NCBI GenBank assembly: GCA_963663765.2
Contig: CAXXUA010000015.1
Span: forward strand, 288,001 to 352,000
Direction of reading: 5' to 3'
Length of the DNA stretch: 64,000 nucleotides
DNA from: Candidatus Poribacteria bacterium
GTDB lineage: Bacteria; Poribacteria; WGA-4E; WGA-3G
A model generated the notes under the pieces. It saw nothing but the letters and a program-made list of their open reading frames with translations. It made no database searches and was not told the origin of the DNA. A program made the position numbers and the translations under genes. Shown here in pieces: positions 18,774 to 48,504 of the stretch (the stretch's first letter is position 1; every line of letters starts with the position of its first letter).

Positions 18774-19138
18774 TCGCTCCTACCGTAATATAGGGTTCGC
18801 TCCTACCGTAATATAGGGTTCGCTCCTACCGTAATATAGGGTTCGCTCCTACCGTAATATAGGGTTCGCTCCTACCGTAATATAGGGTTCGCTCCTACCG
18901 TAATATAGGGTTCGCTCCTACCGTAATATAGGGTTCGCTCCTACCGTAATATAGGGTTCGCTCCTACCGTAATATAGGGTTCGCTCCTACCGTAATATAG
19001 GGTTCGCTCCTACCGTAATATAGGGTTCGCTCCTACCGTAATATAGGGTTCGCTCCTACCGTAATATAGGGTTCGCTCCTACCGTAATATAGGGTTCGCT
19101 CCTACCGTAATATAGGGTTCGCTCCTACCGTAATATAG
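18774..19138. repeat. Perfect 23-bp tandem repeat, 15 full copies plus one 20-bp copy
   Basis: Unit TCGCTCCTACCGTAATATAGGGT with no spacers; the first unit is the 3' end of REP GTCGCGACCGGGAGGTCGCTCCTAC (18759-18783). Confidence 0.97.
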
Positions 19139-23176: not shown

Positions 23177-25171
23177 CTAATTTGAACCGTTAATTAAAGT
23201 AGCAAAATCCCATACAAGTACTGCACCATCACCGCTTGTTATGAGTGTTTTTCCGTCTTGACTAAATGCTATACCACTTATCCTATGCGAAAATCCTTTA
23301 ATTGTTTTGACTAACTTACCAGTGTCAGCATCCCAAATACTTAGGGTAAAGTCAAAACTTCCAGCAAGAAGATATTTTCCATCAGGACTAAACTCGCAGC
23401 TTAGTAAAAACCCATTATCTTTTAGCAGAATAAATATGTCTTTAAGAGTGTGTTTGTGAACACCAGTTGCAACATCCCACAAATTAATCTTTTTGCTATA
23501 TGTACGAAAACTAGCGAATGACTTTCCATCTGGACTAAAGACGAGATCGTTTATATTCTCCGAATTATGCTTGAGATCCAAGGTTCTCAAGTGGCTTCCA
23601 GATGCAACATCCCACATGTTAATGATCTTAAACCCGTCGGTACTTGCAATGATTTTGCCATCAGGACTGAAAGATAGCCTTACGATTTTGGTTGACGACT
23701 CATGTGTAATCGGTGCGTACTTTTGTTGCATCGTGTCAAGCTCACATATATGTATATTTTTCTCTGTCACACCTGCAAGCAGCTGAGTCTTAGGACTAAT
23801 CACTACTTTACTCATATTTTTTGGATGTATACTTGGTCTATTTTTACTTTTACCTGTTTTCGCGTCCCATTGACGAATAGTAATTTCCCTTGCCCTTTTT
23901 TTATTATTGCCAGTTATCGCGTTCCATAGACGAGTAGTATTTTCCATACTTTCGCTTACTATTGTTAACCCGTCCGAACTATATGAAACGGCATAAACTT
24001 CAGATTTGTGTCCTCTAAGTATCTTTTTGTGTTTCGCTGTTGTAACATCCCACAAATGAATGTAACCATTCGTACTTCCACTCACCAGAGTTAATCCATC
24101 CGGACTCAATGATATGCTTGTTGCAATATCAACATGGTCTCTTAGGCTATACTTTTGTTTTCTGGAATTTACATCCCATAGCATAAGAAGACCAAATCGG
24201 TCAAAACTTAATAGTGTATTACCATCAGGACTAAAGACGACTTTTCGAATTTCATTAGAATGCTCATTTAGAGTCGCTTTCCGTGTTCCTTTATTGATAT
24301 CCCACAATATGATGGAATAGTCTGTACTTCCACTTGCAAGTGTATTTCCATCAGGACTAAAAGCGAGACATTCTATTCTCTTTTCATGTCCTTTTAGCGT
24401 TTTCTTGTGTTCACCTTTTTCAATATCCCATACTTCGATTGTTTTGTATTGAATCCCTGATGCAACTGTTTTCCCATCTGAACTTAATGCTAAACATTTA
24501 TCTACATGTGAATTAATCTTCATTTCTTGCAATACCTTTTCTTCCACAACATCAACTACAAGGATAACATCACTACGGCTACTTGCCAATATTCTTCCAT
24601 CCGTGCTAAAGGCAATATTATCAGCACTGTGGAAAGCTTGAAGTTCAAAGTGATGTGTACCTGTTGTCACGTCCCACAAATCAATCTTACCTGACTTTGT
24701 ACTTACGAGGCTTTTGCCATCACCGATGAACGATACAGAATCAAAATCAAAATCATAATATGGTTCTGAGTCACGTATGAATGTGGTTTTGTGCTTAAAT
24801 GTCTCTATATCCCATATAAGGATTACTTTATTATTACTTATAGTTGCCAGTTTTTCTCCATCCAAACTGAATGACATCATTTTTGCTGCGGGTTTATCTG
24901 TTGCTATGAGTGCTGTTTCCTCATACGTGTTTGCATCATAAAACCAAATTCCTGTAGAACTTGCGACAGCAAATTGTGTGCCATCAGGCAGGTAGATAAC
25001 ATCATGAATCATCCCTTTACCTATTCTTGCTTTTAGACCTTTGGGTAAATTAATCTGTGGTGTTTCAATCGGAAATGTGTCTGAACTGGCAATATTCGGG
25101 AGAAAATGTAAAACTAAGAAAATTGAAATGATGCTGATTACCAAAAAAGTAAAGTGCATTTTATTTTTCAC
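23177..25171 (-). CDS. Secreted WD40-repeat protein
   Basis: Many GH...FSPDG..LASGS.D..I.LWD repeats; LPKGLKARIGKG N-terminus after a signal peptide. Confidence 0.93.
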   Translation of the reverse strand: MKNKMHFTFLVISIISIFLVLHFLPNIASSDTFPIETPQINLPKGLKARIGKGMIHDVIYLPDGTQFAVASSTGIWFYDANTYEETALIATDKPAAKMMSFSLDGEKLATISNNKVILIWDIETFKHKTTFIRDSEPYYDFDFDSVSFIGDGKSLVSTKSGKIDLWDVTTGTHHFELQAFHSADNIAFSTDGRILASSRSDVILVVDVVEEKVLQEMKINSHVDKCLALSSDGKTVASGIQYKTIEVWDIEKGEHKKTLKGHEKRIECLAFSPDGNTLASGSTDYSIILWDINKGTRKATLNEHSNEIRKVVFSPDGNTLLSFDRFGLLMLWDVNSRKQKYSLRDHVDIATSISLSPDGLTLVSGSTNGYIHLWDVTTAKHKKILRGHKSEVYAVSYSSDGLTIVSESMENTTRLWNAITGNNKKRAREITIRQWDAKTGKSKNRPSIHPKNMSKVVISPKTQLLAGVTEKNIHICELDTMQQKYAPITHESSTKIVRLSFSPDGKIIASTDGFKIINMWDVASGSHLRTLDLKHNSENINDLVFSPDGKSFASFRTYSKKINLWDVATGVHKHTLKDIFILLKDNGFLLSCEFSPDGKYLLAGSFDFTLSIWDADTGKLVKTIKGFSHRISGIAFSQDGKTLITSGDGAVLVWDFATLINGSN

Positions 25172-25251
25172 TGTTACAATTTCCTATTTATAGCGGGTTT
25201 CCATAATTCAGTTATTGTGAAATTCTGAAATCCAGCGCGCTTAAAAAGCGC

Positions 25252-25322
25252 CAAATCAAGAAATCAACGGTATGAATGCCTTTTGGCATTCACCGGGTAT
25301 GAATGCGCCTATGGCATTCACC
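25252..25322 (+). repeat. CAAATCAA-led hairpin element inserted in a REP
   Basis: CAAATCAAGAAATCAAC plus two GAATGC/GCATTC hairpins; flanks rejoin to AGCGCGCTTAAAAAGCGC|GCCGACC, matching the REP at 48226-48250. Confidence 0.75.
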
Positions 25323-25353
25323 GCCGACCATGGTGCGTAAGTTTCATTATTTT

Positions 25354-26970
25354 CTATTCATTTGTCACATTCGTTATCTTACTCATATTCCATAGTAGTA
25401 TTGTATCGTCAGCACTATAACTTGCAAGCGTTTGCATATCAGTACTCAGTGAAAAACATCTAAGAAAGTATGCATGTCCTATCAAGAAATGGTAGAATTG
25501 TCCAGTGTTGACATTCCAGAAGTGAATTACACGTGTTTCACTATTAATTGCAAGGAGATTTCCATCTTGCGTAAACAGCAATTCCTTCCAATAGTCGTCT
25601 TTTTCAGGACTAGTTCTTTCCATTGGTGCTGAGAGTGTTTTTAGCAGTTCTTCAGTCTCTATATCCCATAAACGTGCACTTCTATCCCAATCAGTACTTG
25701 CGAGTTGTTGACCGTCAGGACTGAACATTATCCGACTTACGCTTTTTTTATGCCCTTTGAAAATCCTTATTGGGATACCTATTTCCACATCAATCAGATA
25801 AATATTACCATTTTTGCTACCAACCGCCAGTAAACTTCCATCCTGATTAAAGGAAAGGCAAGAAATAGAAGACATCCGTTCATCATGGAAAGTTTCATGT
25901 TTCCAAGATTCTGTATTCCACAGAAGGATGCTTCCATCATCACTTCCAGTTGCAAGGTGTTTTCCATCGGAACTGAAAACTATGCTATTAACAAACCCAA
26001 TATGACCATTTAATTTCGTTTTGAGTTTCCCGTTGTTGAGATCCCATAGCCGAATCGTACCGTCCATACTGCCACATGCAAGTGTTTTTCCATCCGGACT
26101 GAAGGCAACACCTTCAAAAACGAATGGTTGATCATAATGCCTGTGTTCTTGATTTGGTAATGTTGTCATAAGGTGTCCAATAAGTTTATACTTTAGTTTT
26201 CCCGTATTGGTATCCCACACATGAATAGGTAATTTATTCTGCAACATTATAATCAGTTTTCCATTTGGACTTAGCAAAAGTTCGCTTGAATAGTCAAGTT
26301 GCAAAAAGTCATTAATTCTTTTTATCTGTTTTTCTGTTTGGGTATCGTGTATTGAGAAGCCATTTTCATCATTTGTTGTGGCGTAGGTCTTCCCATTCGG
26401 ATTAAATGCAATTTTAACTTTTTCCTTTTCATCATCGTCATCTTTCAATGGTTGATTGGCGTTATCATCAGGATCTTGCCATAATTCTATAGTCTTATTC
26501 TCTTTTTTAATAGTGAGTTTTTGTCTATCTGGACTATATGTCACGTCATATTTCACATTTAATTCTTTACATTCTCCAGTATTAACATTCCACACCAGAA
26601 TTAGATCGGTTATGCTACTCTTTGATTCACCCATAATCGTCTGTCCATCAGTGCTAAATCTGACATTCTTGAGTTCGCGTCCTAAAGCATAGTATGAATT
26701 ATACAATGGTATAGGAAGTAACTTGATCTCATTGTACGTTTCTGTGTCATATAACCAAATTCCGATGGTACTTACAACTGCTAACACATTCCCGTCTGGG
26801 GAATACAAGAAATCCTTTATTTTACCTTTTCCAAGTCGTGCTATAGCACCTTCTGGTAGACTCATTTGTGTGTAATTTTGCGCATAACTGCTCTGTAGAA
26901 AAACAGTTGTAATGATGCTGAGTAATAAAACTCTCAGAAATAAAATAGCATGAGATTTCTTGGCTTGCAT
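25354..26970 (-). CDS. Secreted WD40-repeat protein (paralog of the downstream gene)
   Basis: LPEGAIARLGKG start and WD40 repeats. Confidence 0.93.
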   Translation of the reverse strand: MQAKKSHAILFLRVLLLSIITTVFLQSSYAQNYTQMSLPEGAIARLGKGKIKDFLYSPDGNVLAVVSTIGIWLYDTETYNEIKLLPIPLYNSYYALGRELKNVRFSTDGQTIMGESKSSITDLILVWNVNTGECKELNVKYDVTYSPDRQKLTIKKENKTIELWQDPDDNANQPLKDDDDEKEKVKIAFNPNGKTYATTNDENGFSIHDTQTEKQIKRINDFLQLDYSSELLLSPNGKLIIMLQNKLPIHVWDTNTGKLKYKLIGHLMTTLPNQEHRHYDQPFVFEGVAFSPDGKTLACGSMDGTIRLWDLNNGKLKTKLNGHIGFVNSIVFSSDGKHLATGSDDGSILLWNTESWKHETFHDERMSSISCLSFNQDGSLLAVGSKNGNIYLIDVEIGIPIRIFKGHKKSVSRIMFSPDGQQLASTDWDRSARLWDIETEELLKTLSAPMERTSPEKDDYWKELLFTQDGNLLAINSETRVIHFWNVNTGQFYHFLIGHAYFLRCFSLSTDMQTLASYSADDTILLWNMSKITNVTNE

Positions 26971-27135
26971 ACCGTGAGATCCTTTGTGTTTATTTCATTT
27001 TGAATATAATACCATTTCTAAAAATTATTGTCGCATTCGAACGGTTGTTATGGTAGTCATTCTTTAGGCACAAACTTCCAGTTTGTGCTACAGAAATAAG
27101 AAACCCCGATTTTGGCAATCAGGGTTTCAATTTTT

Positions 27136-27393
27136 TTATTTTTTCTGTAGGTCACCGAGTAATCCAACTAATGCGAATCTGATATGTGAAGAGAGTGCGG
27201 AGTTTTCAGCTCTTAGGTCAGCACCTTCTTCGTCGGGATACATGACGTGGGCTGCAACAGCCTTTTTGACCCAAGTTTCAGCTCTGTTATCGTAAGGGAT
27301 ATATTTTTCTTTGGGTGCTGTGCAGGCGGGACATTCATCTGGGGGTTCATTGGCTTCTTTCCACAAATAGCCACAAGCAGTACATACAAACAT
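27136..27393 (-). CDS. Rubredoxin-like domain protein
   Basis: CTACGY...PDECPAC motif; AAGGA RBS. Confidence 0.8.
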   Translation of the reverse strand: MFVCTACGYLWKEANEPPDECPACTAPKEKYIPYDNRAETWVKKAVAAHVMYPDEEGADLRAENSALSSHIRFALVGLLGDLQKK

Positions 27394-27805
27394 AGTTAAT
27401 TCCTTTCTTATTGTAAGTGTATATATGTATTCATAGCGTAATTAGAAGGTTATTATCTGATAGTAATCATTCTATCAAATATTATTTTGAAAATCAACTG
27501 TAATTTTGCCTGTAATTTTGTAAGGGTGATTGAAAATATTTTGGTATAGTGTTGTCTGAATCGCGGATTACGCGGATGGGTATCGGAATCGCAGATTACA
27601 CGGATTACGCGGATTACATTGATTACATGGATAAGACATCTGCACCAGATCTGTTTGCTTAGGTGCATCTAATCATCAGCAAAGGATGTTGATGCGAAGG
27701 ACACATTTTTCATTTTAATATTGCGTGTTAACACAGTTATAGTAAGGGTTTATAGCCGAATTTTATTGTATATTTTTAGATAGTAACGTAATTTTTTGTA
27801 ATTGA

Positions 27806-27928
27806 CAGGACTTACGCACACAATGGTAGGCGTGCTTTGTAAGCGCGCCGGAAACCCAGAAAAACGCTGATAATGGCATCATTTTCATCATAATTTTTGA
27901 TTAAATCAAGAAAACTGCGTAAGTCCTG
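27806..27928. mobile_element. MITE with 13-bp TIRs and 5-bp TSD, carrying a REP
   Basis: CAGGACTTACGCA / TGCGTAAGTCCTG, flanked by ATTGA on both sides; internal GTAGGCGTGCTTTGTAAGCGCGC. Diverged reverse copy at 41520-41601. Confidence 0.8.
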
Positions 27929-28421
27929 ATTGAAAAATATATTTTACTTGAAAGTGTAACATTTTGTTTTCTGTTTCAAAAAGTATTAGATTGAGGTAGT
28001 AATGCAATTATAAAAATGTAAATATTAACTTATTAGATTGAATGTAATATATTTTGTAATACAATACCTTCGCCAATAATAGACATTCTTCCAGATTGTG
28101 CGGGCAGTTGTAGCACATTCTGCCAGATTGTGCCTATAAATTATTCTGTCAGATTGCTGATATAGTCATTTCTATTGTCAAATTAGAGGATGTGATAACA
28201 GGGTTATTCAGTTTTCAATATTATTGATAATATTTTGCTATGTCGTTAATTTTATGTGTTGCCATCTTGTCCATGTCTTTAGTCCCGTAGGGACGATATG
28301 TTTATAGAAACATGTTATCTATCCCTCTTGAGTTCCGTAGGAACGACATAGAAAAATAAACATATCGTCCCTACCAAATCAACGCCAAATGCGCCAAATC
28401 AACGGTATGAATGCCATTAAG

Positions 28422-30141
28422 CCTACACTCCGCAGTTGTTTAATCAGATTTTAAGTATTTATGTTATACTCTTTATATCTTTATATTAGGAGTATAACAT
28501 CATCACTCAATCTACTTTTACAACACAACGTTTAGATCACCTCGGCATAGTAGCTGGTGTATGTGATCGTATTGACTTGATAAACACTATTGATACTTGT
28601 ATTTCCCCAACGAAACGGAAAGTTTCAGTGGGTGAATCTGTTGTTGCTATGATCTTGAATGCTTTAGGCTTTGTCTCACGCCCACTCTACTTGACACCTG
28701 AGTTTTTTTCAAATAAACCGGTGGATCTATTGATACGCCCTCATCTCTGTGCTGCCGATTTCACGGACGATTGTCTTGGGCGTGCTTTAGATACACTTTA
28801 TGAAAATGGTGTTACCGAACTTTTTGCGACAGTTGCTTCTAAAGCATTATCAACTTATGAGATTGACCATCGTTTTGTTCATCTGGATAGCACCACGTTT
28901 AGTTTTCAGGGGAACTATGATACCGAAACAGTTGATGAACACGCTATTCACATTACCCACGGGTATAGTCGGGATCAGCGTCCGGATCTCAAACAAGTGG
29001 TAGTTCAACTTCTCTGTTCTTATCGGTCTCAGTTCCCTGTATGGTTCGAAGCACTTGATGGAAATCAGTCTGATAAAACAAGTTTTCCCAACACGATCCG
29101 AGAATATTTGTCTCAACTGCGTGGCAGTGATGCCCCTTATTTTGTAGCGGATAGTGCGCTTTATACAGCACAAAACATTGCGAAGCTGCGTGATGTGCGT
29201 TTTATTACGCGTGTGCCGGAAACACTCAAAGCTGTCAAAGAACTCTACCAAACTATTTCGACTGAAGATATGCAGCCAGCATCTCTTGATGGATATAGTT
29301 ATCTATCAGTAGATAGCACCTATGCGGATGTTCCACAAAGGTGGTTAGTTGTTTATTCACAAGCTGCGTATCATCGTGAAGTGGCAACTTTAGTAAAAAA
29401 GATTGCCAAAGCACAGACAGCCGCACAAACATCACTCAATCGTTTACAAAATAAAACGTATGAGACCGATACAGCTGCGGCATCTGCGGCAACAGTCCTT
29501 GCCAAGTCATGGAAATATCATAAACTTCGTTTCTCCATTATTTCTGTTCCACATTACACTACATCGGGACGCCCCAAAAAGACAGCTAAACCGACACATT
29601 TTCGTTATCGGGTTGAAGGTGAAGTTATTGATGATATAGAAACGATTGAAAAACTCAAACGCAGCAAAGGCCGATTTGTCTTAGCTACCAATGAACTTGA
29701 TACAACTTTACTTGACGATGCGACTATCCTTGAAGCATATAAAGCACAGAACGTGTCTGTAGAACGCGGTTTTCGGTTTTTGAAAGACCCCTTATTCTTT
29801 GCCGATAGTCTATATCTTGAAAAACCCCAGCGGATTATGGCATTACTGATGGTGATGGGACTTTCTTTACTTGTTTACGCTCTTGCCGAACGATGGGTTC
29901 GGCAAGAGCTAAAAAAACAAGAACAAACAATACCTAACCAAGTTGGTAAACCCACGCAAAAACCAACACTCAGGCGTATTTTTCAAATGTTTGAAGGCGT
30001 TGATGTATTATTGATAGAACAAAACGAACATATACAACGGTCTATTGTAAATTTAAATGAAATACACACACAAATCATCAACATTTTAGGCATAGAAGTA
30101 AAAAATGTCTATTTTCCAGATCCATAACTGCGGAGTGTAGG
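28422..30141 (+). mobile_element. IS1634-family insertion sequence
   Basis: Perfect 16-bp TIRs CCTACACTCCGCAGTT / AACTGCGGAGTGTAGG; 6-bp TSD ATTAAG (28416-28421, 30142-30147). Confidence 0.92.
28499..30127 (+). CDS. IS1634-family DDE transposase
   Basis: LDHLGIVAG (upstream of the TTG at 28577), HLDSTT, GYSRDQRPDLKQ, VADSALY and VERGFRFLKDP motifs. Start position uncertain. Confidence 0.9.
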   Translation: MITQSTFTTQRLDHLGIVAGVCDRIDLINTIDTCISPTKRKVSVGESVVAMILNALGFVSRPLYLTPEFFSNKPVDLLIRPHLCAADFTDDCLGRALDTLYENGVTELFATVASKALSTYEIDHRFVHLDSTTFSFQGNYDTETVDEHAIHITHGYSRDQRPDLKQVVVQLLCSYRSQFPVWFEALDGNQSDKTSFPNTIREYLSQLRGSDAPYFVADSALYTAQNIAKLRDVRFITRVPETLKAVKELYQTISTEDMQPASLDGYSYLSVDSTYADVPQRWLVVYSQAAYHREVATLVKKIAKAQTAAQTSLNRLQNKTYETDTAAASAATVLAKSWKYHKLRFSIISVPHYTTSGRPKKTAKPTHFRYRVEGEVIDDIETIEKLKRSKGRFVLATNELDTTLLDDATILEAYKAQNVSVERGFRFLKDPLFFADSLYLEKPQRIMALLMVMGLSLLVYALAERWVRQELKKQEQTIPNQVGKPTQKPTLRRIFQMFEGVDVLLIEQNEHIQRSIVNLNEIHTQIINILGIEVKNVYFPDP

Positions 30142-30223
30142 ATTAAGGCATTCCCCGTATGGCATTTGTCGGGACTAAAGAACTGGGGAGGGTAGTCGTT
30201 TTCTATAAACATATCGTCCCTAC

Positions 30224-30329
30224 CAAATCAACGCCAAATGCGCCAAATCAAGAAATCAACGGTATGAATGCCATTAAGGCATTCCCCGGGTATGAATGCC
30301 ATTAAGGCATTCCCCGTATGGCATTTGTC
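30224..30329 (+). repeat. Nested CAAATCAA-led hairpin element inserted in a REP-like palindrome
   Basis: Flanks rejoin to AACATATCGTCCCTAC|GGGACTAAAGA, the reverse complement of the intact copy at ~28276-28302. Confidence 0.8.
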
Positions 30330-30662
30330 GGGACTAAAGAGCGATATTCATTTTTCAATAATCTAAAACTGATGCAGAAAGTTCGGTTAGGAAACCAAAC
30401 CTGGGTATTAACTTTCAGTAAATCTCAAGAACAGAAAACTCTTAAAACTAAATAATCCTGCTATGATAAAAAATTCTTCAACGAAAACCTGAAGTTATTT
30501 TTATTTATATAATCCTAACAATATCACAGAGCAATGGTAGATCAACACTATATACTCATTCAACTGAAGCACTCAAAAATGGCGAAGGTATTGGTAATAT
30601 ATAAAATATTGTTTGTCAAGTCTTTCTTCAATTTTTATTTTGGATGAGTTTTTATGCTTTTT

Positions 30663-33600
30663 CTATTCATCTGGTGCGTCTAATATCTGAATATCATTCA
30701 TAGGTTTACCATCTGGATCAGTAAGACGTAGATAAAATCCGCATTTATCATTCTCATTGCAAACCTTGACCAGAAATGAGTTTATACCTGATTTTAATGT
30801 AACTGGAATAATGGAGTTGTCTATACCTGCAGGTTGGTTTTTTGTCTTTTCGAATAACAGTTCGCCATTAAACCAAATTTTTGCTTGGTTATCACTACCA
30901 AACCGGACTTGTGCTTGTTGTTCTTCGGTGGCGTGAAGAGCTGTCCATGCATAGGAAACAGATTGAGTGATATCTGAACTGAGATGAATAAACCCGTTGA
31001 GAGTATCATCTGTATGTTTTTTCCAACCAATTTGTTCGTCAATTCCATCATATAGTTTCTTTAACTCAATCAAAGATGATTCTTCGGATATGTACTCAGT
31101 GTTGTATCCGATTCCCGCAGTGTTATCAAATGGTCCGATAGCATACCATGCGTCTTCATGAATGAAACCTGTATTTTGCAATTGTTTCATTGCTTTGTTA
31201 TGTTTGTTGTTTTTGCTGTAGAATTCTGCTAATTTGAGTTGGAGTTTAACCCTGAAGTTTTCAGCGTGTGAATTAGTATATTCAGCGGGTAACATCTTTG
31301 TTAAATTTTGTAGTTTTTGTAGGTATAATTCTTCATCGTTGACTTTTTCGCTAATATCAGTGATTTGTCTCCAGAAAAAAATCAATGTGCGTTCATTGCT
31401 TATTTGACTCAAAGCGTATTTGTAGTGCCTTATTGCCTCATCAAATAAACCTTTGACAGCGCATACCTTACCGAGTGTTGTTGGAAAACCGTATCCTGAA
31501 TGTGCCTCTTTGTAATATGAATATTTTGCTAATGTTAGTGCTGCATCTGGGAATAAATCTTTCTCAAGGAGTTCGTCTATAAGACTTAGATATTGCCAAG
31601 GGTTATGTTGATTGTTGAGTGCCTTCTTTTTTAATTTTAACCATTTGGTGTATGCGGAATCTGCATTTTCTTGGTCGCCAGCAATTTTGTAATGGTCGCC
31701 TAATAGTTCGTAGAGGACAGTACTATTTTGCATAATAGGTTTGATTTCTTCAAGGAAAGGAATGATTTCGTTTTCTTGTCCTTGTTGAGTGTAATAGGTA
31801 GTAATTTTTTGAATAATCAAATCGTGATCAATTTGTCTGAGTGGTGCTTCTAATGCCTGGTGATAGGTCGTGATGGCATTTGGATACTGCATTGCTCTAA
31901 TATAAGATGAAGCTAATAGGTCATATAGTTGGTATGATGTAGGATTGAGTTGGATAGCAGTTTCATAAGCGTTGATTGACTTTTCCAGTTGTTCGGATCT
32001 CAAGTTTGTGAAGACTGGTCGTGTGTATTGCTCAGTATTTGCATTCCCAATGAGTTTACCATCATTTTTGTTAGGTGAAGAATCGTTGATTTTACCATTT
32101 GATGTTTCATTAAAGTTCCAATAACCGACCAAGCCGGGTTCATCACCGTTTAACTGTTTATTCATGTCTGTATGGATTTCAGTTTCTGTACGTGCGATGT
32201 TCCAGATTCGCACTTCATCAATTTGTCCGACGAAAGGGGATTGTGCTGATTGCTCTTCTTCATGTGAGGAACCGATTCGGAGTGGTAGTCGACTTCTATA
32301 TAAGAATTCTTTATGTCTGAAATCTCTTTCTGCAATTTTATAGCCGTTTATGAAAAGTTGCATGGAGTTGTTCTTTGCATCAATGACAGCAGCGATATGA
32401 TGCCATCTGTTGAGTTGGATAACATTCGGAAGAGCATAGAGTGATGCCTCACCTGCGCCACCTGGTGATGCGGCTAACTGAATTTGTCCCCCTTTCTTTA
32501 GGTATAGAATATAGCTGCGGTTCTTGATGTCTGGAACGCGTTTATCACCTTTGAAGATAATTGGTGCATATCTGTTTGGATATGCGGTGGGTTTTATCCA
32601 TGCGGAAACTGTCACCTGTTCTGAAATTTTGTTTAGTGTAAGACTGTCGTCTATTTCTACATAACTTCCATTACCTGAGAGATTTAACGCGGTGTCTTCA
32701 ATTACCTTCCCTGTATCACCTCTTTTATGTGGAAGTTTTTGATAAAGCTCTCCCAATTTTTTGTACCATTGTGATTTATCTGGTTCAAGGTTGGTGAGAT
32801 TTTCATATTGATTAACTGCTTCCAAAAGGTTTTCTGTTGCTTCGTAACTTTCAGCAAGTTTTGCAATCAGTGTGGGATCGTTTGGATTTTCTTCAACCGC
32901 TTTCAATTGTTCTGGTATCCATTTTTCATATAGTTTTGCTTCTTTTGCGATTTTGTCTATTTCAGCATTTGCGCTTCTTGTTAAGTAGTTTTCCTCATCA
33001 ATATTTTTCACCTTCTGATATGTTTGAAATGCTTCTTCAAATCGTTTTGCTTTTTGGTAACTACTTGCAAGGATAAAATATAGGTACTTCAAATCCCATT
33101 TGTTGTTATTGTTCTCTACGATATTGATAGCATCATTTGCGATTTTGATAGCGGGTTCATACATTTTATTGTTAAGACATAAGGTTGCGAGTGCACCTTG
33201 GAATGAAGTGTCGTTTTTGAAACTACTTGTCGGTAATGCAGTTTCAGCTTGTTTCAACAAATCATTCGTCTTTTCAAGTTGTTTGATCTTTTTGTATGCC
33301 ACAGCTGCGAGAATTAAGCTGCGAATATTATTGGGTTCTAATTTGCTAAGTTTGAGATATGCTGCGGCAGCTTGATGATAGTCATTAGTTTTCCAATAGG
33401 ATTCAGCGAGTAATTCCATATTATCTGTGTTGTTCGTATCCTTTTCAAGATTACTTTCAATAAGTGCAATTAATGTTTCAAGTTCTCCTTGCTTATAAAA
33501 AGCATTAATTAGAGCTTCACGTTCTTTATCCCCTATAAAATTGACTGTAATACCCGATGAACCAAAGGTTGATGAAATGGTTTTTAATCTGGGTTGTCCT

Positions 33601-34520
33601 GACACTTCAGTTTCGTAGAATTCTAATGCAAGATCATTCTTGTTATTTTTGATGTATGTTTTCAGTAAATCTTCAATACCTCTACTTCGTTCATGGATGT
33701 TATTCTCCATTTGGTCGAGAACTTTCTTGTAAGCATCAGAAGCTTTTTCGTATTCACCTTTTTTAATTAAGATTTTAGCATGTTCTCTTAGCATTGCGGT
33801 GGTGATAGATCCATCGGTTTCTGCTTTTTCTAACATCTCTTCCAAATTACCCTGATAACGGTATAGGTTTATTAGCCGCTGTCCATTTTTCTGTTTGTCC
33901 CACTCGTGTGTAGAGTGTAAGTCAGCTTCCTTTAATGCTTTTTCGGCTGCGTTTAAATCATCAGTGAGATAATATAAATCGGTTAGGTTTAGGAATATAT
34001 CTTTGTTAGTGTGTCTTAATTCAATTGCTTTCTTGTAGTTTGCAATTGCCTCTTCATATTTCTCTTCATCAGTGTAAAGTTTTGCGAGTCGAAAGTAGTG
34101 TTTGCCAACTTCAGGTTGTGATAGAATAAATGACTGGATGAGTTCAAGTGCTTTGTTGTTCTGACCTGTCGTGATGACACTTTCAAAGAGTTTGTCTTGA
34201 TAGCTTGCATTTACAGGGTCACCGTCAAGTAGTTCATTCCAGATTTGAGTTGCTTTTTCGTGTTGTTTAGTTTGTGTGTAAAGGTTTGCAAGTTGTTTTT
34301 GCGATTCTATGTTGTTGGGTGCAGCGTTTACAATTCTTTCATACATATCAATAGCTTCGTCAATTTTGTTTTGCTTGATGTAATCTTGTGCTATTTTGAT
34401 GAATTCTTGAACAGACGGATCAGTCTTTTCAGTTTCTTGAGCATCAAGAGCTGCATTGAGTGATACGATAGTGATTGTAATTAGTAGGCATAAGTAGTAC
34501 AACATTTTTTTGTAAGTCAT
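30663..34520 (-). CDS. Large secreted TPR-repeat protein with embedded LamG domain and C-terminal PA14-like domain
   Basis: Signal peptide; TPR helices; TVSAWIKP...GQIDEVRIWN...GLVGYWNFNE; GSDNQAKIWFNG. Confidence 0.88.
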   Translation of the reverse strand: MTYKKMLYYLCLLITITIVSLNAALDAQETEKTDPSVQEFIKIAQDYIKQNKIDEAIDMYERIVNAAPNNIESQKQLANLYTQTKQHEKATQIWNELLDGDPVNASYQDKLFESVITTGQNNKALELIQSFILSQPEVGKHYFRLAKLYTDEEKYEEAIANYKKAIELRHTNKDIFLNLTDLYYLTDDLNAAEKALKEADLHSTHEWDKQKNGQRLINLYRYQGNLEEMLEKAETDGSITTAMLREHAKILIKKGEYEKASDAYKKVLDQMENNIHERSRGIEDLLKTYIKNNKNDLALEFYETEVSGQPRLKTISSTFGSSGITVNFIGDKEREALINAFYKQGELETLIALIESNLEKDTNNTDNMELLAESYWKTNDYHQAAAAYLKLSKLEPNNIRSLILAAVAYKKIKQLEKTNDLLKQAETALPTSSFKNDTSFQGALATLCLNNKMYEPAIKIANDAINIVENNNNKWDLKYLYFILASSYQKAKRFEEAFQTYQKVKNIDEENYLTRSANAEIDKIAKEAKLYEKWIPEQLKAVEENPNDPTLIAKLAESYEATENLLEAVNQYENLTNLEPDKSQWYKKLGELYQKLPHKRGDTGKVIEDTALNLSGNGSYVEIDDSLTLNKISEQVTVSAWIKPTAYPNRYAPIIFKGDKRVPDIKNRSYILYLKKGGQIQLAASPGGAGEASLYALPNVIQLNRWHHIAAVIDAKNNSMQLFINGYKIAERDFRHKEFLYRSRLPLRIGSSHEEEQSAQSPFVGQIDEVRIWNIARTETEIHTDMNKQLNGDEPGLVGYWNFNETSNGKINDSSPNKNDGKLIGNANTEQYTRPVFTNLRSEQLEKSINAYETAIQLNPTSYQLYDLLASSYIRAMQYPNAITTYHQALEAPLRQIDHDLIIQKITTYYTQQGQENEIIPFLEEIKPIMQNSTVLYELLGDHYKIAGDQENADSAYTKWLKLKKKALNNQHNPWQYLSLIDELLEKDLFPDAALTLAKYSYYKEAHSGYGFPTTLGKVCAVKGLFDEAIRHYKYALSQISNERTLIFFWRQITDISEKVNDEELYLQKLQNLTKMLPAEYTNSHAENFRVKLQLKLAEFYSKNNKHNKAMKQLQNTGFIHEDAWYAIGPFDNTAGIGYNTEYISEESSLIELKKLYDGIDEQIGWKKHTDDTLNGFIHLSSDITQSVSYAWTALHATEEQQAQVRFGSDNQAKIWFNGELLFEKTKNQPAGIDNSIIPVTLKSGINSFLVKVCNENDKCGFYLRLTDPDGKPMNDIQILDAPDE

Positions 34521-34533
34521 TATATTGTATCTC

Positions 34534-36588
34534 CTATGAAATTGTGGAAGTTTTTCCTTTCAGTTCTTTTATTTGGTCGCGTAGTTTTGCTGCGAGTTCA
34601 AAATCAAGGTCTATAGCAGCTTTGTGCATTTGACGAGTTAGGTCGTCGATTATTGTTTCAATGTCTTCAATTGCGCTTGTTTCTTTAACCATTGGAATAG
34701 GATCATCAGGTTCTTCAGTTAAGTATTCCTCTGTAGATTCAGAGATAAGTTGCTGAATTGCTTTTTGAATAGTTGCGGGTGTAATGTCATTATCTTCGTT
34801 GTATTTGAACTGGATTTCACGACGGCGGGAGGTCTCCGCGATTGCATCAGCCATTGCATCCGTGATGGTATCACCGTACATTAGGACTTCTCCATCAACG
34901 TTCCGCGCTGCGCGACCAGATGTTTGGACAAGCGATGTGACGGAACGTAGAAAACCAGGACGGTCAGCGTCAAGGATGGCTACAAGAGAGACTTCAGGTA
35001 GGTCGAGACCTTCCCGCAATAGATTTATACCTATGAGTACATCAAATTCACCTTCACGTAGTTGTCGTAGGATTCTTGCTCTATCAAAGACATCAATTTC
35101 AGAATGCATGTAGTTTGCTCGGATGCCTGCTTCAATAAAATACTCGCTTAGATCTTCTGCCATCCGTTTTGTGAGTGTTGTTACCAACACGCGTTGTTTC
35201 TGTTTTACACGTTCATTTATCTTACCGATGAGATGGTCGATTTGTCCACGAACGGGATGTACAGAGATTTGTGGGTCTATCAAACCTGTGGGACGTATGA
35301 TCTGTTCAACTATTTTGCCGCCTTCTTCCATTTCGTATTTTCCGGGTGTAGCAGAAACATATATGACTTGATCAATATAGGCTTCTACCTCCTCAAATTT
35401 TAGGGGTCTGTTGTCTAATGCGGACGGTAGACGGAAGCCGTATTCAACGAGTGTTGTTTTTCTTGCACGGTCACCTCGGTACATACCTTTTAGTTGTGGG
35501 ATTGTAACATGTGATTCATCTATGAATATGAAGAAATCAGCAGGAAAATAGTTGAGAAGGCAGTATGGTGGTTCTCCCGGTTGCAAACCGGACAGATGTC
35601 GTGAATAGTTTTCAATTCCTGAACAGTAACCGACCTCACGTAACATTTCTAAATCGAACCTTGTTCTTTGTTCAATGCGTTGTGCTTCAAGGAGTTTGTT
35701 TTCTTTTTCAAAAGTTGCGATTCTGTCATGGAGTTCAAGTTCAATGTTGATCAGAGCATCCTCAAAGATGTCAGCATTAGTCATGAAATGTTTTGCAGGA
35801 TATATTTCCAGTGTATGCAGTTTGTTTAATATTTCTCCAGTAACTGTATCTATTTCGCAAATTCTATCCACTTCATCTCCGAAGAGTTCAATTCGGAATG
35901 CGCTTTCACTATATGCTGGAAACACTTCTATTACATCTCCGCGAACGCGAAAAGTTCCTTGCCAAAAGTCAACGTCGTTTCGGACGTACTGGATATCCAC
36001 TAAAGCGCGTAGGAACTCATCTCTTTTAATGTAATTGCCGACTTCTAAATCAACCTTTTGTCCTTCAAATTCGCGGGGTGAACCGAGACCGTATAAACAG
36101 GAAACACTTGCTACAATGATGACATCTTGTCTTGACATCAGGGATGCGGTTGAAGCGAGTCGCATGCGTGTGATTTCCTCGTTAATTCGGACATCCTTTT
36201 CAATAAAAGTATCGGTAGATGGGATGTATGCTTCAGGTTGATAGTATTCGTAATCGCTGACGAAATAGTGGACAGCATTGTGTGGGAAAAAGGATTTGAA
36301 TTCGTGGTAGAGTTGTGCGGAGAGCGTTTTATTTGGTGAAATGACGAGTGTTGGACGTTGGATATTCTGTATGACATTCGCCATTGTATAGGTCTTACCC
36401 GAACCTGTAACACCTAACAAAGTTTGTGCTCTCTCGCCTTTTAGAATTCCGTTAGTGAGTTTTTCGATTGCTTGTGGTTGGTCTCCCTGTGGATCGAATT
36501 CCGATGTTAATTCAAAAGGTGTTGATGGTATTTCATGATTTACATTGATGGGTGAAATTGATGGGCGCGGTTCAAAGTGCTCTCTCAT
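34534..36588 (-). CDS. uvrB: Excinuclease ABC subunit B
   Basis: GVTGSGKT, YYQPEAY, DESH, GINLLREGLDLPEV and C-terminal UVR domain. Confidence 0.98.
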   Translation of the reverse strand: MREHFEPRPSISPINVNHEIPSTPFELTSEFDPQGDQPQAIEKLTNGILKGERAQTLLGVTGSGKTYTMANVIQNIQRPTLVISPNKTLSAQLYHEFKSFFPHNAVHYFVSDYEYYQPEAYIPSTDTFIEKDVRINEEITRMRLASTASLMSRQDVIIVASVSCLYGLGSPREFEGQKVDLEVGNYIKRDEFLRALVDIQYVRNDVDFWQGTFRVRGDVIEVFPAYSESAFRIELFGDEVDRICEIDTVTGEILNKLHTLEIYPAKHFMTNADIFEDALINIELELHDRIATFEKENKLLEAQRIEQRTRFDLEMLREVGYCSGIENYSRHLSGLQPGEPPYCLLNYFPADFFIFIDESHVTIPQLKGMYRGDRARKTTLVEYGFRLPSALDNRPLKFEEVEAYIDQVIYVSATPGKYEMEEGGKIVEQIIRPTGLIDPQISVHPVRGQIDHLIGKINERVKQKQRVLVTTLTKRMAEDLSEYFIEAGIRANYMHSEIDVFDRARILRQLREGEFDVLIGINLLREGLDLPEVSLVAILDADRPGFLRSVTSLVQTSGRAARNVDGEVLMYGDTITDAMADAIAETSRRREIQFKYNEDNDITPATIQKAIQQLISESTEEYLTEEPDDPIPMVKETSAIEDIETIIDDLTRQMHKAAIDLDFELAAKLRDQIKELKGKTSTIS

Positions 36589-36645
36589 TTCTATTCCTAT
36601 AGTTTTCTCATGTTATACTGGATATTTATATAAAAGGCAACATAT

Positions 36646-39177
36646 TTAATGTTTATCACAGATTTTGGTAGGTGCTTGTCCGATTATAAAAGGTTCGTTA
36701 CTGACATTTTCTTCTGGACAGTTTTCTTTGTTTTTAAGTAGCCCCGTTGTGTTATCAATTTCCCAGAATTCAATTCCCTCTGGTACAGCGAATTCTCTTT
36801 CTGGACCTCTTGATGCGTCATCAATGAATTCTGCCCAGATGGGAAGAGCAGCCCATGCTCCCTGTTCGTTGTAGTTTCGTACATTACTTTTTTGTCTGTC
36901 AAGACCGACCCACACACCTACAACCATGTCAGCGGAATACCCAACGAACCAAGCATCTACATTCTCATTAGTAGTGCCAGTTTTTCCGCCAATTGGACGT
37001 GTGATGTAATATGGTTTACGTAATGCGCGGTTCCCTGTTCCTTTCTTAATAACACTTTGAAGGAAGGATGTGATCTGATATGCGACTTTTTCATCTATAA
37101 CACGTGTACGATCCTGTTGGTAGCTGTCTGTTGGATAAATCAGGTTTCCATCAGGGTCAGTAATATACTCAATGTATCTTGGCTCAACTTTTATACCTCG
37201 ATTTGCAAATACACCATAAGCGGAAGTTAATTCCAGTACTGTCATACCAAATGAACCTAAAGTAAGTGCAGGTTTTTTGGGGTCCATTGCAGTTGAAATC
37301 CCGAAATCTTTTGCGAGTTCAACGATTCTAACAATTCCATCTCTATATCCGTCTTCAGTGATTTTTGTTTCCCATGCGGCTCTTGCTGTTGGTACGTTAA
37401 TTGATTTCATTAGTATTTTCCTGACTGTGACAGGTCCATCATGTTTATATTTAGTATAGTTGTCAACTTCCCAAATCTGACCAGGTACGTGTTCAATCGC
37501 CCAAGGTTCATCTATTATGATTGTGGCTGGTGTGAGTATAGCAGGATCTTCCATAAGAGCAGCGAAGACGATAGGTTTGAATGCTGAACCTGGTTGTCGC
37601 TTTGAACTTCCTACTGCACGGTTTAGGAAGTTGTGATAGCTCATTTTTTTGATATGAGGATTATTACCATTAATGCTATATTCACGTCCACCGACCATTG
37701 CTTTAACATAGCCGGATTGTGGGTCAAAAGCGATTAGAGCGGCTTGCAAATAGTTTTCTTGAGGGTGAATACCTTGAGGATTATTTTTGTTTTGATCATA
37801 ATTTGGTACGTGAGTACCCCATCTTCCATCCATATACCGTAAATGTTTTGCAACAGCATTCATAGCGATGGATTGCATGGACATGTCAATTGTAGTGTAT
37901 ACTTTCAAACCTTCACTGTATAAACTATCTTTGAGTTCAGAGATGTTGCTAAGTTCAGATTGAATGTGGTCTAAGAAGTGACCAGCAGTATTCTGTTTTT
38001 CTCTTAATAAAGTCTGTGTTGGTATCTGGACATGTATCGGTTGAATTCGGTTATTTTCGTATTCCTGTTGGTTTATAAAACCTTGATTGAACATTGCATT
38101 TAGGACGACATTGCGACGTTTTTTTGCATTTTCAGGGTTTGTCAATGGGGAGTACATAGATGTGCCTTTTGGAATTCCTGCCAGTAGAGCACATTCATGA
38201 AAATCGAGTTCAGCGACTTCTTTTTCAAAGAAAGCCATAGCTGCTTTTTGTACACCATAGAGTTGTTGTCCCCCAAATCTACCGAAGTCAATAAAGTTGA
38301 GATATGCTTCAAGGATTTGTGATTTTGAAAGAGTTTTTTCAATTCTGAATGCGAGTAAAATTTCTCTTGTTTTTCGTGCAAGTGTCCGCTGATTTTTTTC
38401 TGATTGCAGGTAGAAATTGCGTGTGAGTTGCTGCGTTAGTGTGCTTGTTGCACCGAGTCTTTCTCCCCCTAAAAACGCATCCTTAAATGCGCCACCGAGT
38501 CGGATTATGTCAATACCTGTATGTTGAAAGAAACGTCTATCTTCAATAGCAATGAAAGCGTCAGTCAATTTTGCTGGCATTGAATCCAGGGATATGATAG
38601 TTCGTGTCGTATCATCAAGACCTGATGATTCTTGTATTAGTTCTGGTTCAAGGAAGAAGTTTATAATTGAGATACCATCTGAGTTTAGAATAGTATCAAG
38701 TTTTCCATTTTTGACATTGAGATGCAGTCGTTTTGCTTCAGTTCCAGTGGTCATATTTGGATATTCAAATTCTCGTAGGAATATATCTATTGTTCCATTC
38801 TCTTTCCCTTTTTCTCCAGTGAGTTTGTGTGAATATTGTCCTGGATAGTTTACCCCTTTTCCATCGTTTTTTAATTCCTCATAGTCCAAACGATGTTTCT
38901 GGAGTTTATCAATCAGAAATGCAGCAGAATCTTTGCGTTGTACTTCACATATAGATGAATATACTTCAAGGTGCTGTCGCCAAGTTTGTGAATCGTTTTT
39001 GTATTCTAAGTTGATCAAATCAATTTCAGCAACATCTTCCCAACATCCAAGCATAAATCCGCTTGCAACGCCTATTCCAAAGCAGATAACAAGGAAGATA
39101 AGGATAAGACCCAGGAAGATTGTACTAAGGATTACTTGTAATGTATTATACAATAACTTTTTCATATTATACTCCAC
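36646..39177 (-). CDS. Class A penicillin-binding protein (transglycosylase/transpeptidase, PBP1B-like)
   Basis: EDRRF, GATSTLTQQL, SAFK (SxxK), SIN (SxN) and KTGT motifs; N-terminal TM segment. Confidence 0.92.
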   Translation of the reverse strand: MEYNMKKLLYNTLQVILSTIFLGLILIFLVICFGIGVASGFMLGCWEDVAEIDLINLEYKNDSQTWRQHLEVYSSICEVQRKDSAAFLIDKLQKHRLDYEELKNDGKGVNYPGQYSHKLTGEKGKENGTIDIFLREFEYPNMTTGTEAKRLHLNVKNGKLDTILNSDGISIINFFLEPELIQESSGLDDTTRTIISLDSMPAKLTDAFIAIEDRRFFQHTGIDIIRLGGAFKDAFLGGERLGATSTLTQQLTRNFYLQSEKNQRTLARKTREILLAFRIEKTLSKSQILEAYLNFIDFGRFGGQQLYGVQKAAMAFFEKEVAELDFHECALLAGIPKGTSMYSPLTNPENAKKRRNVVLNAMFNQGFINQQEYENNRIQPIHVQIPTQTLLREKQNTAGHFLDHIQSELSNISELKDSLYSEGLKVYTTIDMSMQSIAMNAVAKHLRYMDGRWGTHVPNYDQNKNNPQGIHPQENYLQAALIAFDPQSGYVKAMVGGREYSINGNNPHIKKMSYHNFLNRAVGSSKRQPGSAFKPIVFAALMEDPAILTPATIIIDEPWAIEHVPGQIWEVDNYTKYKHDGPVTVRKILMKSINVPTARAAWETKITEDGYRDGIVRIVELAKDFGISTAMDPKKPALTLGSFGMTVLELTSAYGVFANRGIKVEPRYIEYITDPDGNLIYPTDSYQQDRTRVIDEKVAYQITSFLQSVIKKGTGNRALRKPYYITRPIGGKTGTTNENVDAWFVGYSADMVVGVWVGLDRQKSNVRNYNEQGAWAALPIWAEFIDDASRGPEREFAVPEGIEFWEIDNTTGLLKNKENCPEENVSNEPFIIGQAPTKICDKH

Positions 39178-39192
39178 TATTTGTGAAATAAA

Positions 39193-39813: not shown

Positions 39814-40003
39814 TTTTAGTTCTCCTATGTTATAAAACGTTACAAACATAATTGCGTTTATAATGAGTTTACATTATCTTAAGTTGTAAAAACTAATTTT
39901 CGGAATATAGTATAAAATACATAATAACGAAAAATTATATTGATTTTTTTATTATATAGTGTAACAATGTAACATATTTTTCAGTATATAGCAAACTGTA
40001 CGA

Positions 40004-40188
40004 CAGGGTTATTCAGTATTAGACATTTTAACTGTTTCCCGAGAAAATCGCGACCGATAAAACAAGAAATCAACGGTATGAATGCGCGTATGGCATTCCC
40101 CGGCTATGCCTTTTGGCATAGCCCAGGGCGCTCCTACTGCGGGATTCTTTTTGAGAAATTCACTCATTAGGAAAACTGAATAACCATG
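40004..40188. mobile_element. MITE with ISAs1-type ends containing an interrupted REP
   Basis: CAGGGTTATTCAGT ... ACTGAATAACCATG; no TSD recognisable. Confidence 0.5.
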
Positions 40189-40309
40189 GATATTGATAGT
40201 TTTTCTACAGTTTGCTCAAACCATAATTTATTTTAATTTTTCAACTATTGAATAAAATGGAGGTATTCAAGGGAGTTCAAAATTATTAGTATCAGGATTA
40301 GTATTATTT

Positions 40310-48182: not shown

Positions 48183-48250
48183 GGTAGGCGTGCTTTGTAA
48201 GCGCGCTCTTGGGACTTGATGTACCAGCGCGCTTACAAAGCACGCCTACC
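48183..48250. repeat. REP doublet (perfect 25-bp inverted repeat)
   Basis: GGTAGGCGTGCTTTGTAAGCGCGCT ... AGCGCGCTTACAAAGCACGCCTACC. Confidence 0.9.
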
Positions 48251-48504
48251 AGGGTAGGTTAGATAAAATTACCTAATTAATTTTTTAATCTTCATTAAAT
48301 CCTGGTTCAAATCTTCATTAAATCCTGGTTCAAACAAAGAATGAGCTAACTCCCAAAAATAAACTAACTCAAGGATTAACAACTGTGATAGAATTTATTC
48401 AATAAAATGAAAACTGAATAACACTGCGGTTCTGAGTGTGTGAAAAGTTTTTGTAGAAACCCTGATATAATAGTGGCTTTTAGAATTATTTTTGCACATT
48501 CAGG

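Follow-up and report, generated by a model that had tools for sequence, protein, structure and literature searches.

A family of very small leader-and-hairpin modules inserted into REP-type repeats and other intergenic sites of Poribacteria

Introduction

To our knowledge, there is one description of mobile DNA of less than ~50 nt, from cyanobacteria, and how it moves has been an open question since 2008. These small dispersed repeats (SDR1-8) of the Nostocaceae are reportedly 21-27 nt long, dispersed and highly repeated, and are said to insert precisely, also into their own copies. They are further said to have compensated secondary structure and a link to heptamer tandem repeats, and an RNA-mediated insertion has reportedly been proposed for them. 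Here we analyze a module of 35-45 nt found in a 64,000-nt stretch of sponge-symbiont (Poribacteria) DNA (the window; C15:288001-352000 of the 6.35-Mb, 15-contig, 97.8% complete genome G000). A reading of these letters alone, hereafter the original prediction, had taken it for an element that inserts into repetitive extragenic palindromic (REP) sequences. We find that the element is real and abundant, and that behavior of a kind already known in cyanobacteria is now seen in a second, unrelated lineage. We favor, at a probability of roughly 0.55, the reading that it is one of a group of mobile modules that are very small, non-coding and non-autonomous and that, more tentatively, move as folded single-stranded DNA by means of a trans-acting enzyme.

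Papers citing the cyanobacterial work describe SDR5 as inserting between the third and fourth base of GCGATCGC, and place SDRs in no lineage outside the Nostocaceae. Similarly to the SDRs, the Poribacteria module is built of tiny units (21-27 nt there, 26-28 nt here), inserts precisely and into itself, shows compensated structure and is confined to a lineage. Both are associated with tandem repeats, heptamers there and an octamer leader here, and in both the mechanism is open. Unlike the SDRs, the module occurs in Poribacteria, has the target C|G-S-S-T rather than HIP1, and carries a 9-nt leader that is common to sibling families. The comparison sets it against SDR1-8 by description only; the SDRs would be its closest analogue, and the link is an analogy only.

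Palindrome-associated transposable elements (PATEs) derive from IS200/IS605 insertion sequences (IS), are moved by TnpA, carry two different subterminal hairpins and are longer than 100 nt. The module may resemble them in hairpin-dependent recognition, in the lack of a target duplication and in strand-specific insertion guided by a short preferred sequence. It differs in having one hairpin and a length of 35-45 nt, with 209 of 378 copies consisting of a 9-nt leader and hairpin units. Unlike a MITE of a DDE transposon, its ends (CAAATCAAC and ATTCCCC) are not inverted repeats and its junctions show no duplication.

REPs are a known landing site of other DNA. IS that target REPs are described, e.g., IS1397 (cited in PMC3116915; background in PMC3733652), and so are REPs that have themselves entered palindromic targets (Di Nocera et al. 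2013, PMC3733652). The module shares with the REP-targeting IS the preference for REPs as landing sites, whereas those are autonomous, 1-1.5 kb long, and have a transposase and target duplications. The module is like REPs and their doublets, REPINs (PMC3733652; Bertels and Rainey 2011, PMC3116915), in being a short intergenic hairpin with hundreds of copies, no target duplication and a lineage-restricted occurrence. However, the module parasitizes REPs rather than being a REP. Its host repeats are true GTAG-tagged REPs in a genome that holds a REP-associated tyrosine transposase (RAYT), while the module itself lacks a GTAG or CGTC tag (its hairpin is flanked by GGTAT and CCCC), does not lie beside the RAYT and does not co-occur with RAYT genes across genomes.

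Results

The module inserts with the same ends into many contexts

The module consists of a leader (C-AAATCAA, zero to about five extra GAAATCAA octamers, C) followed by a 26-27-nt hairpin, spans 35-45 nt and is non-coding. The hairpin follows the plan GGTATGAATGCC, loop, GGCATTC(C/A)CC, and extra hairpin units sometimes follow. A genome search that the original prediction had proposed returned 563 occurrences of GGTATGAATGC in G000, in 432 clusters. A strict leader-plus-hairpin pattern retains 378 of these clusters, on which the junction counts rest, the remaining clusters being left out.

For each of the 378 copies we cut from the first leader base to the last C of ATTC(C/A)CC and joined the 9+9 nt flanks. 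The exact joined 18-mer is found elsewhere in the genome for 232 copies. Shifting both ends by one base, which the terminal C on both sides allows, still gives 222, while out-of-register boundaries give 0-12. The claim that removal restores repeats seen intact elsewhere, made from a handful of sites, holds genome-wide for these 232 copies. Most copies sit, as proposed, in REP-type repeats and in the module's own relatives. The recurrent hosts are AAGCAC|GCCTAC (75 copies), AAGCAC|GCCTGC (37), CAGCGC|GCCTAC (18), GAGATC|GCCTAC (11), GACCGG|GGGTCG (10) and TAGGTC|GGGTAG (3), besides others. Nesting is frequent: 46 copies lie in the loop of a sibling module, module B (ATGCGC|GTATGG), and 15 lie between other copies of the element, where the left flank ends in TTCCCC and the right flank starts with CAAATC.

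Contexts were counted as distinct after collapsing those that differ by at most 4 of 16 flank bases. G000 contributes 34 contexts. Together with 68 sites from other Poribacteria records (446 sites) there are 54, and with a further eight from low-copy genomes (454 sites) there are 57. The module is thus shown to have entered at least 54 contexts, keeping the same ends and leaving no target duplication. These contexts comprise REP/REPIN repeats, loops within sibling modules, other copies of the module itself and a small number of intergenic sites that are unique. Over the 54 contexts, position -1 is C in 32 and position +1 is G in 47, in keeping with the predicted C|G junction; position +4 is T in 37 and position -5 is A in 32. 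The left flank shows enrichment only at -1 and -5, and the right flank is more informative. The target preference reads C|G-S-S-T, insertion in REP hosts is clean between C and G, and the orientation of the element is constant relative to a given host site. The absence of target duplications and of coding capacity, and with them the predicted very small, non-autonomous character of the element, stand.

Of the largest host family, host family 1 (AAAGC(A/G)C|GCCT(A/G)C), 1149 genomic copies are empty and 115 are filled, with 30 variants of the element among the latter. Judged by 60 nt of host sequence, the nearest relative of a filled copy is empty for 76 of the 115 and filled for 39, against 10.4 expected. 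These counts point to passive co-amplification with the host together with repeated independent filling (or emptying). They also bear on a reading in which the module is not itself mobile at all, being a selected protein-binding or structural motif that travels as a passenger of REP- or MITE-type hosts and is spread by gene conversion. The clustering of filled copies fits such a passenger, as does the concentration of most copies in few host families (75+37+18 in the variants of family 1, 46 in module B), and adjacent tandem units are identical more often than expected (24/69 versus 9.2). A passenger would, however, hardly reach 54 or more contexts that include unique intergenic sites, leave 76 of 115 filled family-1 copies nearest to an empty one, vary from 0 to 406 copies among congeners or show no orientation preference relative to genes. 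Three orthologous filled and empty pairs outside repeats, described below, likewise speak against it. We consider the passenger reading very unlikely.

The original prediction further held that insertion is targeted to palindromic structure as such. Reconstructed non-self empty sites (39) fold with a mean of -5.16 kcal/mol, compared with -4.65 kcal/mol for 400 random intergenic CG sites (p=0.048), and the share folding at or below -6 kcal/mol is 0.44 versus 0.25. Many junctions do lie in a hairpin loop or at a hairpin foot, in an intergenic background that is itself hairpin-rich, and unique non-repeat sites also carry insertions. Since the difference in folding is marginal, palindrome targeting as such is not established, and the sequence preference C|G-S-S-T fits better.

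Orthologous filled and empty sites

Where a sister-genus genome has a single copy, this copy lies at a unique intergenic site, and three such sites can be aligned to relatives. At the first locus, G061 and G039 are filled, the copy in G039 being already degenerate, and G079 and G115 read TTTAGCGTTGGGT. At the second, G073 is filled, and G105, G102, G094 and G087 read TTTTCGGTTCGGGTTGC, or TGT in place of TTC. At the third, G067 is filled, and G147, G139 and G132 carry a small hairpin, GCCCCGCTGGGGC. These three between-species pairs, a filled-versus-empty comparison of the kind that the original prediction had suggested, lie outside repeats and show real insertion.

In all three cases, 36 nt (9 of leader, 26 of hairpin and one G) occupy the place of 3 nt in the empty allele, a net gain of 33, and the right flank begins GGG. 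The predicted clean junction is therefore seen in REP hosts but not at every junction. The three lost bases may have been part of the insertion event or a later change. The locus orthologous to the first window copy was also inspected in four congeners, where 79-84% identity and the presence of other repeats or none preclude a base-level comparison. A fourth comparison (L123) was discarded, as it matched a multi-copy host repeat instead.

Replacement of a small patch also brings up a route without an enzyme, in which short single-stranded hairpin DNA from one copy would anneal through a few bases of microhomology, at a repair gap or a replication fork, before being copied or ligated in. It would be akin to template switching or to short-patch illegitimate recombination, a process reportedly known from earlier work, and the hairpin would aid survival of the fragment. 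Such copying would account for a 3-nt patch that is replaced rather than cleanly split in 3/3 cases, and for right flanks that fall into a few classes (GGGT, GCCTAC, GTATGG), which are also the flanks of abundant donors (+1 G in 47/54, +4 T in 37/54). It would also suit a 5' junction that is fuzzy by about one base, an octamer number that runs from 0 to about 5 as in polymerase slippage, the presence of fully palindromic fold-back derivatives, and the fact that no matching transposase was found. However, the 5' end is near-constant in more than 50 contexts and no left flank of a donor is carried along, so that a template with a defined end would be needed. Moreover, the unstructured 9-nt leader is identical across species and sibling modules, which is unexpected without a sequence-specific reader. 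Enzyme-free copying is in our view unlikely, though it deserves to be taken seriously.

Copies within the window

Exact matches to the 17-mer CAAATCAAGAAATCAAC lie at 25252, 30244 and 41602, and a match with two mismatches lies at 40058. At three or fewer mismatches the window holds five matches against 0.76 expected, and none of 100 shuffles reaches five; the fifth match, at 16271 with three mismatches, looks like chance. The 8-mer by itself is not significant (12 window matches versus 7.8 expected). The coordinates of the sites, including the leader at 25252, were correctly predicted. Intact versions of the three host repeats lie at 48226, 28276 and 18759.

Site 1 (25252-25322) comprises the 17-nt leader CAAATCAAGAAATCAAC and two hairpin units of 26-27 nt inside a REP-type repeat that is intact at 48226. 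At site 2 (28375-30170), an outer sibling module B holds an inner copy in its loop, and the loop of the inner hairpin is in turn split by a 1720-bp IS. Site 3 (30224-30329) is an outer module B as at site 2, holding a leader and two hairpins. The features are as follows, read from sequence, and from folds, domain matches or intact copies where stated.

25232..25251, + strand: left half of the REP-type repeat that hosts site 1 (CCAGCGCGCTTAAAAAGCGC), diverged within the family intact at 48226 (host family AAAGC(A/G)C|GCCT(A/G)C)
25252..25268, + strand: site 1 leader, made of C, AAATCAA, one extra octamer GAAATCAA and C
25269..25294, + strand: hairpin unit 1, made of GGTATGAATGCC, loop TTTT and GGCATTCACC (DNA fold -10.3 kcal/mol, z -5.3 with leader)
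25296..25322, + strand: hairpin unit 2, another variant, loop GCGCCTATGGC, one G after unit 1 (sequence and fold)
25323..25346, + strand: right half of the site 1 host repeat (GCCGACCATGGTGCGTAAGTTTCA)
28375..28394, + strand: 5' portion of outer sibling module B (leader CAAATCAAC, then GCCAAATGCGC), inserted behind CCCTAC in a REP of the GGGAC type (REP intact at 28276)
28395..28421, + strand: site 2 inner copy, leader CAAATCAAC and 5' hairpin half up to the loop (ATTAAG)
28422..30141, + strand: unrelated IS, 1720 bp, 17-bp inverted ends CCTACACTCCGCAGTTG, 6-bp target duplication ATTAAG
28577-30127: open reading frame (ORF) of the IS, 516 aa, with DUF4277 and DDE_Tnp_1 domains (domain matches)
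30142..30156, + strand: second ATTAAG and 3' half of the site 2 inner hairpin (GCATTCCCC)
30157..30170, + strand: 3' part of the outer module B (GTATGGCATTTGTC), with the host REP continuing from 30171 (GGGACTAAAG)
30224..30243, + strand: 5' part of the second outer module B
30244..30315, + strand: site 3 inner element in the loop of module B, with leader 30244-30260 and two identical units, 30261-30287 and 30289-30315 (sequence and fold)
30316..30329, + strand: 3' part of the second outer module B, with the host REP continuing from 30330
40058..40101, + strand: site 4, degenerate leader TAAAACAAGAAATCAAC and one hairpin unit whose loop is GCGTATG, placed where a GCGACC/GGTCGC REP has its loop region (REP intact at 18759)
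40102..40124, + strand: a different small hairpin (GGCTATGCC, TTTT, GGCATAGCC) abutting the site 4 element in the same REP loop
41602..41618, + strand: site 5, leader only, at the first target site of its host family (TTCCAGTGC|), with octamer-like sequence behind it and a hairpin found at this locus only
48226..48252, + strand: intact empty copy of host family 1, CCAGCGCGCTTACAAAGCAC followed directly by GCCTACC

The stretch 28375-30170 does contain the element with an inner nested copy, but it is otherwise an ordinary element hit by an unrelated IS. That IS was considered as a partner of the element and rejected: it is a bystander, since the other five of its six genomic copies sit in unrelated AT-rich targets. 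The degenerate copy given as ~40058-40124 holds up for 40058-40101, its degenerate leader and hairpin, whereas the hairpin at 40102-40124 is a different one and may belong to another family of tiny modules. At 41602 the leader is exact, but the AT-rich hairpin behind it (41633-41665) is not part of the family, because it is found at only this locus in the genome.

Tandem 24-nt repeats (GGGTTCGCTCCTACCGTAATATAG) at 18780-18840 of the window are made of the 3' half of the GCGACC/GGTCGC REP.

Units, arrays and variant forms

Among the 432 clusters, 336 have one unit, 81 have two, nine have three and three have four, and there is one cluster each with 5, 10 and 11. Leaders of the 378 strict copies are CAAATCAAC in 209, carry one extra GAAATCAA octamer in 91 and are GAAATCAAC in 24; the longest have 4-5 octamers. 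The first base of the element varies, being C, G, T or absent. The hairpin units (508 of 26-28 nt) fall into 70 variants, the commonest loops being ATTTA, TTTT, ATTAA and GCGTATG. Tandem neighbors are identical in 24 of 69 pairs, compared with 9.2 expected for random pairs, and arrays therefore grow partly by local duplication, though most neighbors differ in variant.

Copies are intergenic, 434 of 465 loose matches lying outside rough ORFs. For 53 matches within rough ORFs, the six mid-ORF ones inspected are chance matches to a loose 11-mer, and the rest sit at the ends of ORFs or in ORFs built of repeat arrays. Relative to flanking genes, 137 copies are co-directional and 130 opposed. That their orientation shows no bias speaks against a transcript-level role or origin.

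Tandem module arrays occur at C6:362462-362860, C6:322659-323150 and C5:1739747-1740175, where they create spurious ORFs. One of them has 9-11 units at a 36-nt period (leader and hairpin), and the others have a period of ~80 nt. Fully palindromic fold-back forms are present on the minus strand of C4 near ~1086104 and at locus L054. They read leader, 5' arm, loop and the reverse complement of the 5' arm and leader, and lie within a host palindrome (GTAGGTC...GACCTAC). In about a dozen copies, ATGAAGATTAAT and AT-rich sequence follow the leader and 5' hairpin half in place of the 3' half (e.g., C13+648560, C4-100774, C11-176989, and loci L060 and L082). This looks like another repeat entering the hairpin loop, or like a longer relative with a common 5' end.

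The hairpin shape is kept behind a constant leader

Folded as single-stranded DNA, the leader with one unit gives the expected hairpin at -10.3 kcal/mol (z -5.3), with 0/200 shuffles as stable and the leader unpaired. Over the elements, z-scores range from -3.6 to -5.3.

The leader is not restricted to this hairpin. Of 900 occurrences of [CG]AAATCAAC, 448 are followed by the start of the present hairpin, 124 by GCCAAATGC, 15 by GTCAGAAGC and 12 by GCCGAATGC. These sibling modules have the same plan and likewise end in C before G. A perfect 6-bp hairpin begins within 6 nt of AATCAAC at 554 of 2347 sites, versus 25 of 978 after the reversed leader. The stems counted are GAATGC (373), CAAATG (50), GAATAC (18), CAGAAG (10), CGAATG (8) and others. 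At least nine fully complementary 6-bp stems thus stand behind one leader: GAATGC, CAAATG, GAATAC, CAGAAG and CGAATG in G000, and GAACGC, GAATGA, CAGCAT and CTGAAT in other records. With compensated stems behind a constant leader, the hairpin shape is kept while the letters of the stem change, and the unpaired leader is kept exactly. Because the stems covary and the leader is common to sibling modules, this suggests a trans-acting reader of sequence and shape.

Distribution

We counted the exact 19-mer AAATCAACGGTATGAATGC in 151 genomes drawn from the phylum, with the reversed pattern as a control that gave 0 in every genome. G000 has the most copies (406), followed by G017 (275) and G016 (205), and 36 of 37 congeners carry the 19-mer, the range being 0-406. 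It is present in 25 of 57 sister-genus genomes, mostly with 1-2 copies and at most 67, in 0/5 genomes of three other genera of the same family and in 1/51 genomes of other families. A scan of the sequence collection returned at least 80 loci (at least 91 matches); among the matches listed, 78 loci are Poribacteria and two are labeled 'uncultured bacterium'. No match to the element was found in 72,556 plasmids, nor in phages or viral contigs.

Window sequence is contained in nine public runs, one of them a 'sponge metagenome' run with part of the window; no RNA run is among the nine. Contigs from four of the runs, compared over window positions 24001-42000, break at the repeats (e.g., 25274/25276 and 40092/40074), and filled versus empty alleles are thus unreadable in them. 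The modules and their REP hosts break short-read Poribacteria assemblies at every copy.

Discussion

How the module may move

The favored reading, movement as folded single-stranded DNA by a trans-acting enzyme, would proceed in a few steps. A copy would move as a folded single DNA strand. An enzyme encoded elsewhere would read the leader sequence and the shape of the hairpin, not its sequence, and would cut and rejoin single strands in the style of an HUH (histidine-hydrophobic-histidine) nuclease. Many copies then multiply passively alongside their host repeats. A 35-nt piece cannot circularize as duplex DNA, and since, in addition, the hairpin shape matters on one strand, the moving form is taken to be single-stranded. 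That the mover is a single-strand cut-and-rejoin enzyme of an unrecognized kind is a more tentative component, which we would place somewhat short of an even chance.

Several observations weigh against this reading. One of them is that the known Y1 HUH genes, RAYT and the TnpA of IS200/IS605, do not fit. G000 contains four IS200/IS605 copies (TnpA and TnpB), one RAYT and, where a contig ends, a partial Y1 gene, yet the element lies within 1.5 kb of 0/5 complete Y1 loci of this genome and of 0/6 RAYT loci in six genomes. RAYT is present in 24/39 genomes of the genus and 41/54 of the sister genus, unrelated to element load. No Y1_Tnp (PF01797) match was found in G001 (89 copies), G048 (106) and G010 (104), i.e., in three of five high-copy genomes tested. 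Among copies with two or fewer mismatches, the exact share is 0.50-0.67 in these Y1-less genomes, compared with 0.60-0.72 in G017, G016 and G000, so that copies without a Y1 gene at hand are not visibly older. The replication-strand bias that single-strand transposition should bring is also weak: 176 of 292 neighboring copies in G000 are co-oriented, a value reached by 4/2000 shuffles. In addition, cutting and rejoining of the HUH kind should be exact, yet 36 nt take the place of 3 nt in the empty allele in 3/3 orthologous comparisons and the first base of the leader varies, and much of the copy number can be ascribed to passive co-amplification with hosts.

Similar orientation counts elsewhere give 23/38 in G005 (p ~0.11) and 20/52 in G047, where there is no clustering. 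GC skew in G000 tracks gene orientation (rho 0.63) and is therefore no marker of replichores.

The same genes are the subject of a more conventional explanation, namely that the module is a REP-like element moved by a known Y1 HUH transposase, either a RAYT or one of IS200/IS605 type, that also serves the host REPs. The genome does offer one RAYT flanked by GTAG-tagged REP arrays and the four IS200/IS605 copies; many of the targets belong to these REPs, and in about one context in four the REP tag CCTAC stands two bases past the junction. The lack of target duplication, the single hairpin and the short single-stranded extensions resemble minimal REP substrates, which reportedly have such features. 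Yet 0/11 Y1 loci have the element nearby, Y1 presence does not track load and is nil in three genomes of about 100 copies, and the element lacks a GTAG or CGTC tag. No RAYT match was found in G001, G048, G010, G014, G042 and G043 (51-138 copies), while G014 and G043 have IS200-like Y1_Tnp matches. The absence of TnpA from three of five high-copy genomes, and four IS200/IS605 copies without the element within 1.5 kb, also separate the module from PATEs. A mover of the known Y1 kind, one form of the HUH-type enzyme that the original prediction had named, is accordingly improbable.

The RAYT itself merits a note. It is a 159-aa RAYT-like Y1 gene at C4:621598-622074 (L109/L111) with the HUH motif PDHIHAV, and long arrays of two GTAG-tagged REP types lie on both sides, with more than 40 units downstream. 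It represents a textbook REPtron in Poribacteria.

The original prediction had offered templated synthesis as its other route. In an RNA-mediated version, as reportedly proposed for the cyanobacterial small dispersed repeats, a small structured RNA would be reverse-transcribed into the target. Structure conserved by compensatory changes would suit this, and so would a 3' junction that is more regular than the 5' one and the small target losses, as in target-primed synthesis. The enzyme, however, was not found: G000, at 97.8% completeness, has no RVT_1 (PF00078) match, although control genomes responded, which also distinguishes the module from retro-elements (retron, group II intron or of the kind of short interspersed nuclear elements). 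The element is moreover not aligned with transcription, and no Rfam family matches the window at gathering score. We regard RNA-mediated insertion as hardly credible.

Derivatives of IS110 and bridge-RNA systems differ from the module as well, for no IS110-type DEDD transposase (PF01548) was found in G000 or in five congeners (G001, G048, G010, G017 and G003). Across the Y1, RVT_1 and IS110 families searched, no candidate enzyme fits the element.

A bolder reading is a self-standing class of mobile DNA that uses no known transposase family. It would employ either an unrecognized enzyme that acts on single-stranded DNA and reads the 9-nt leader and the hairpin shape, or target-primed copying of a discrete hairpin template, with a precise 3' and a loose 5' junction. 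We think this rather unlikely as it stands. If it were true, no known mobile elements would be smaller than these modules and the cyanobacterial SDRs, and that class would gain a tractable comparative system of ~100 genomes with 0-406 copies.

The module is apparently among the smallest mobile DNA elements. The comparative setting, with 0-406 copies over ~100 sequenced species of one family, sibling modules and orthologous filled and empty sites, makes the question of which enzyme, if any, is the mover directly testable by gene-content profiling and biochemistry. In a search of the literature collection, no report linked Poribacteria to such repeats, and the element's motifs matched only unrelated primers.

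Genes around the window copies

Site 1 is flanked by genes for two large WD40 beta-propeller proteins on the minus strand (23177-25171 and 25354-26970), and a 1285-aa protein with TPR and LamG domains is encoded at 30663-34520. These WD40 and TPR-LamG proteins belong to the eukaryote-like repeat proteins that typify sponge symbionts.

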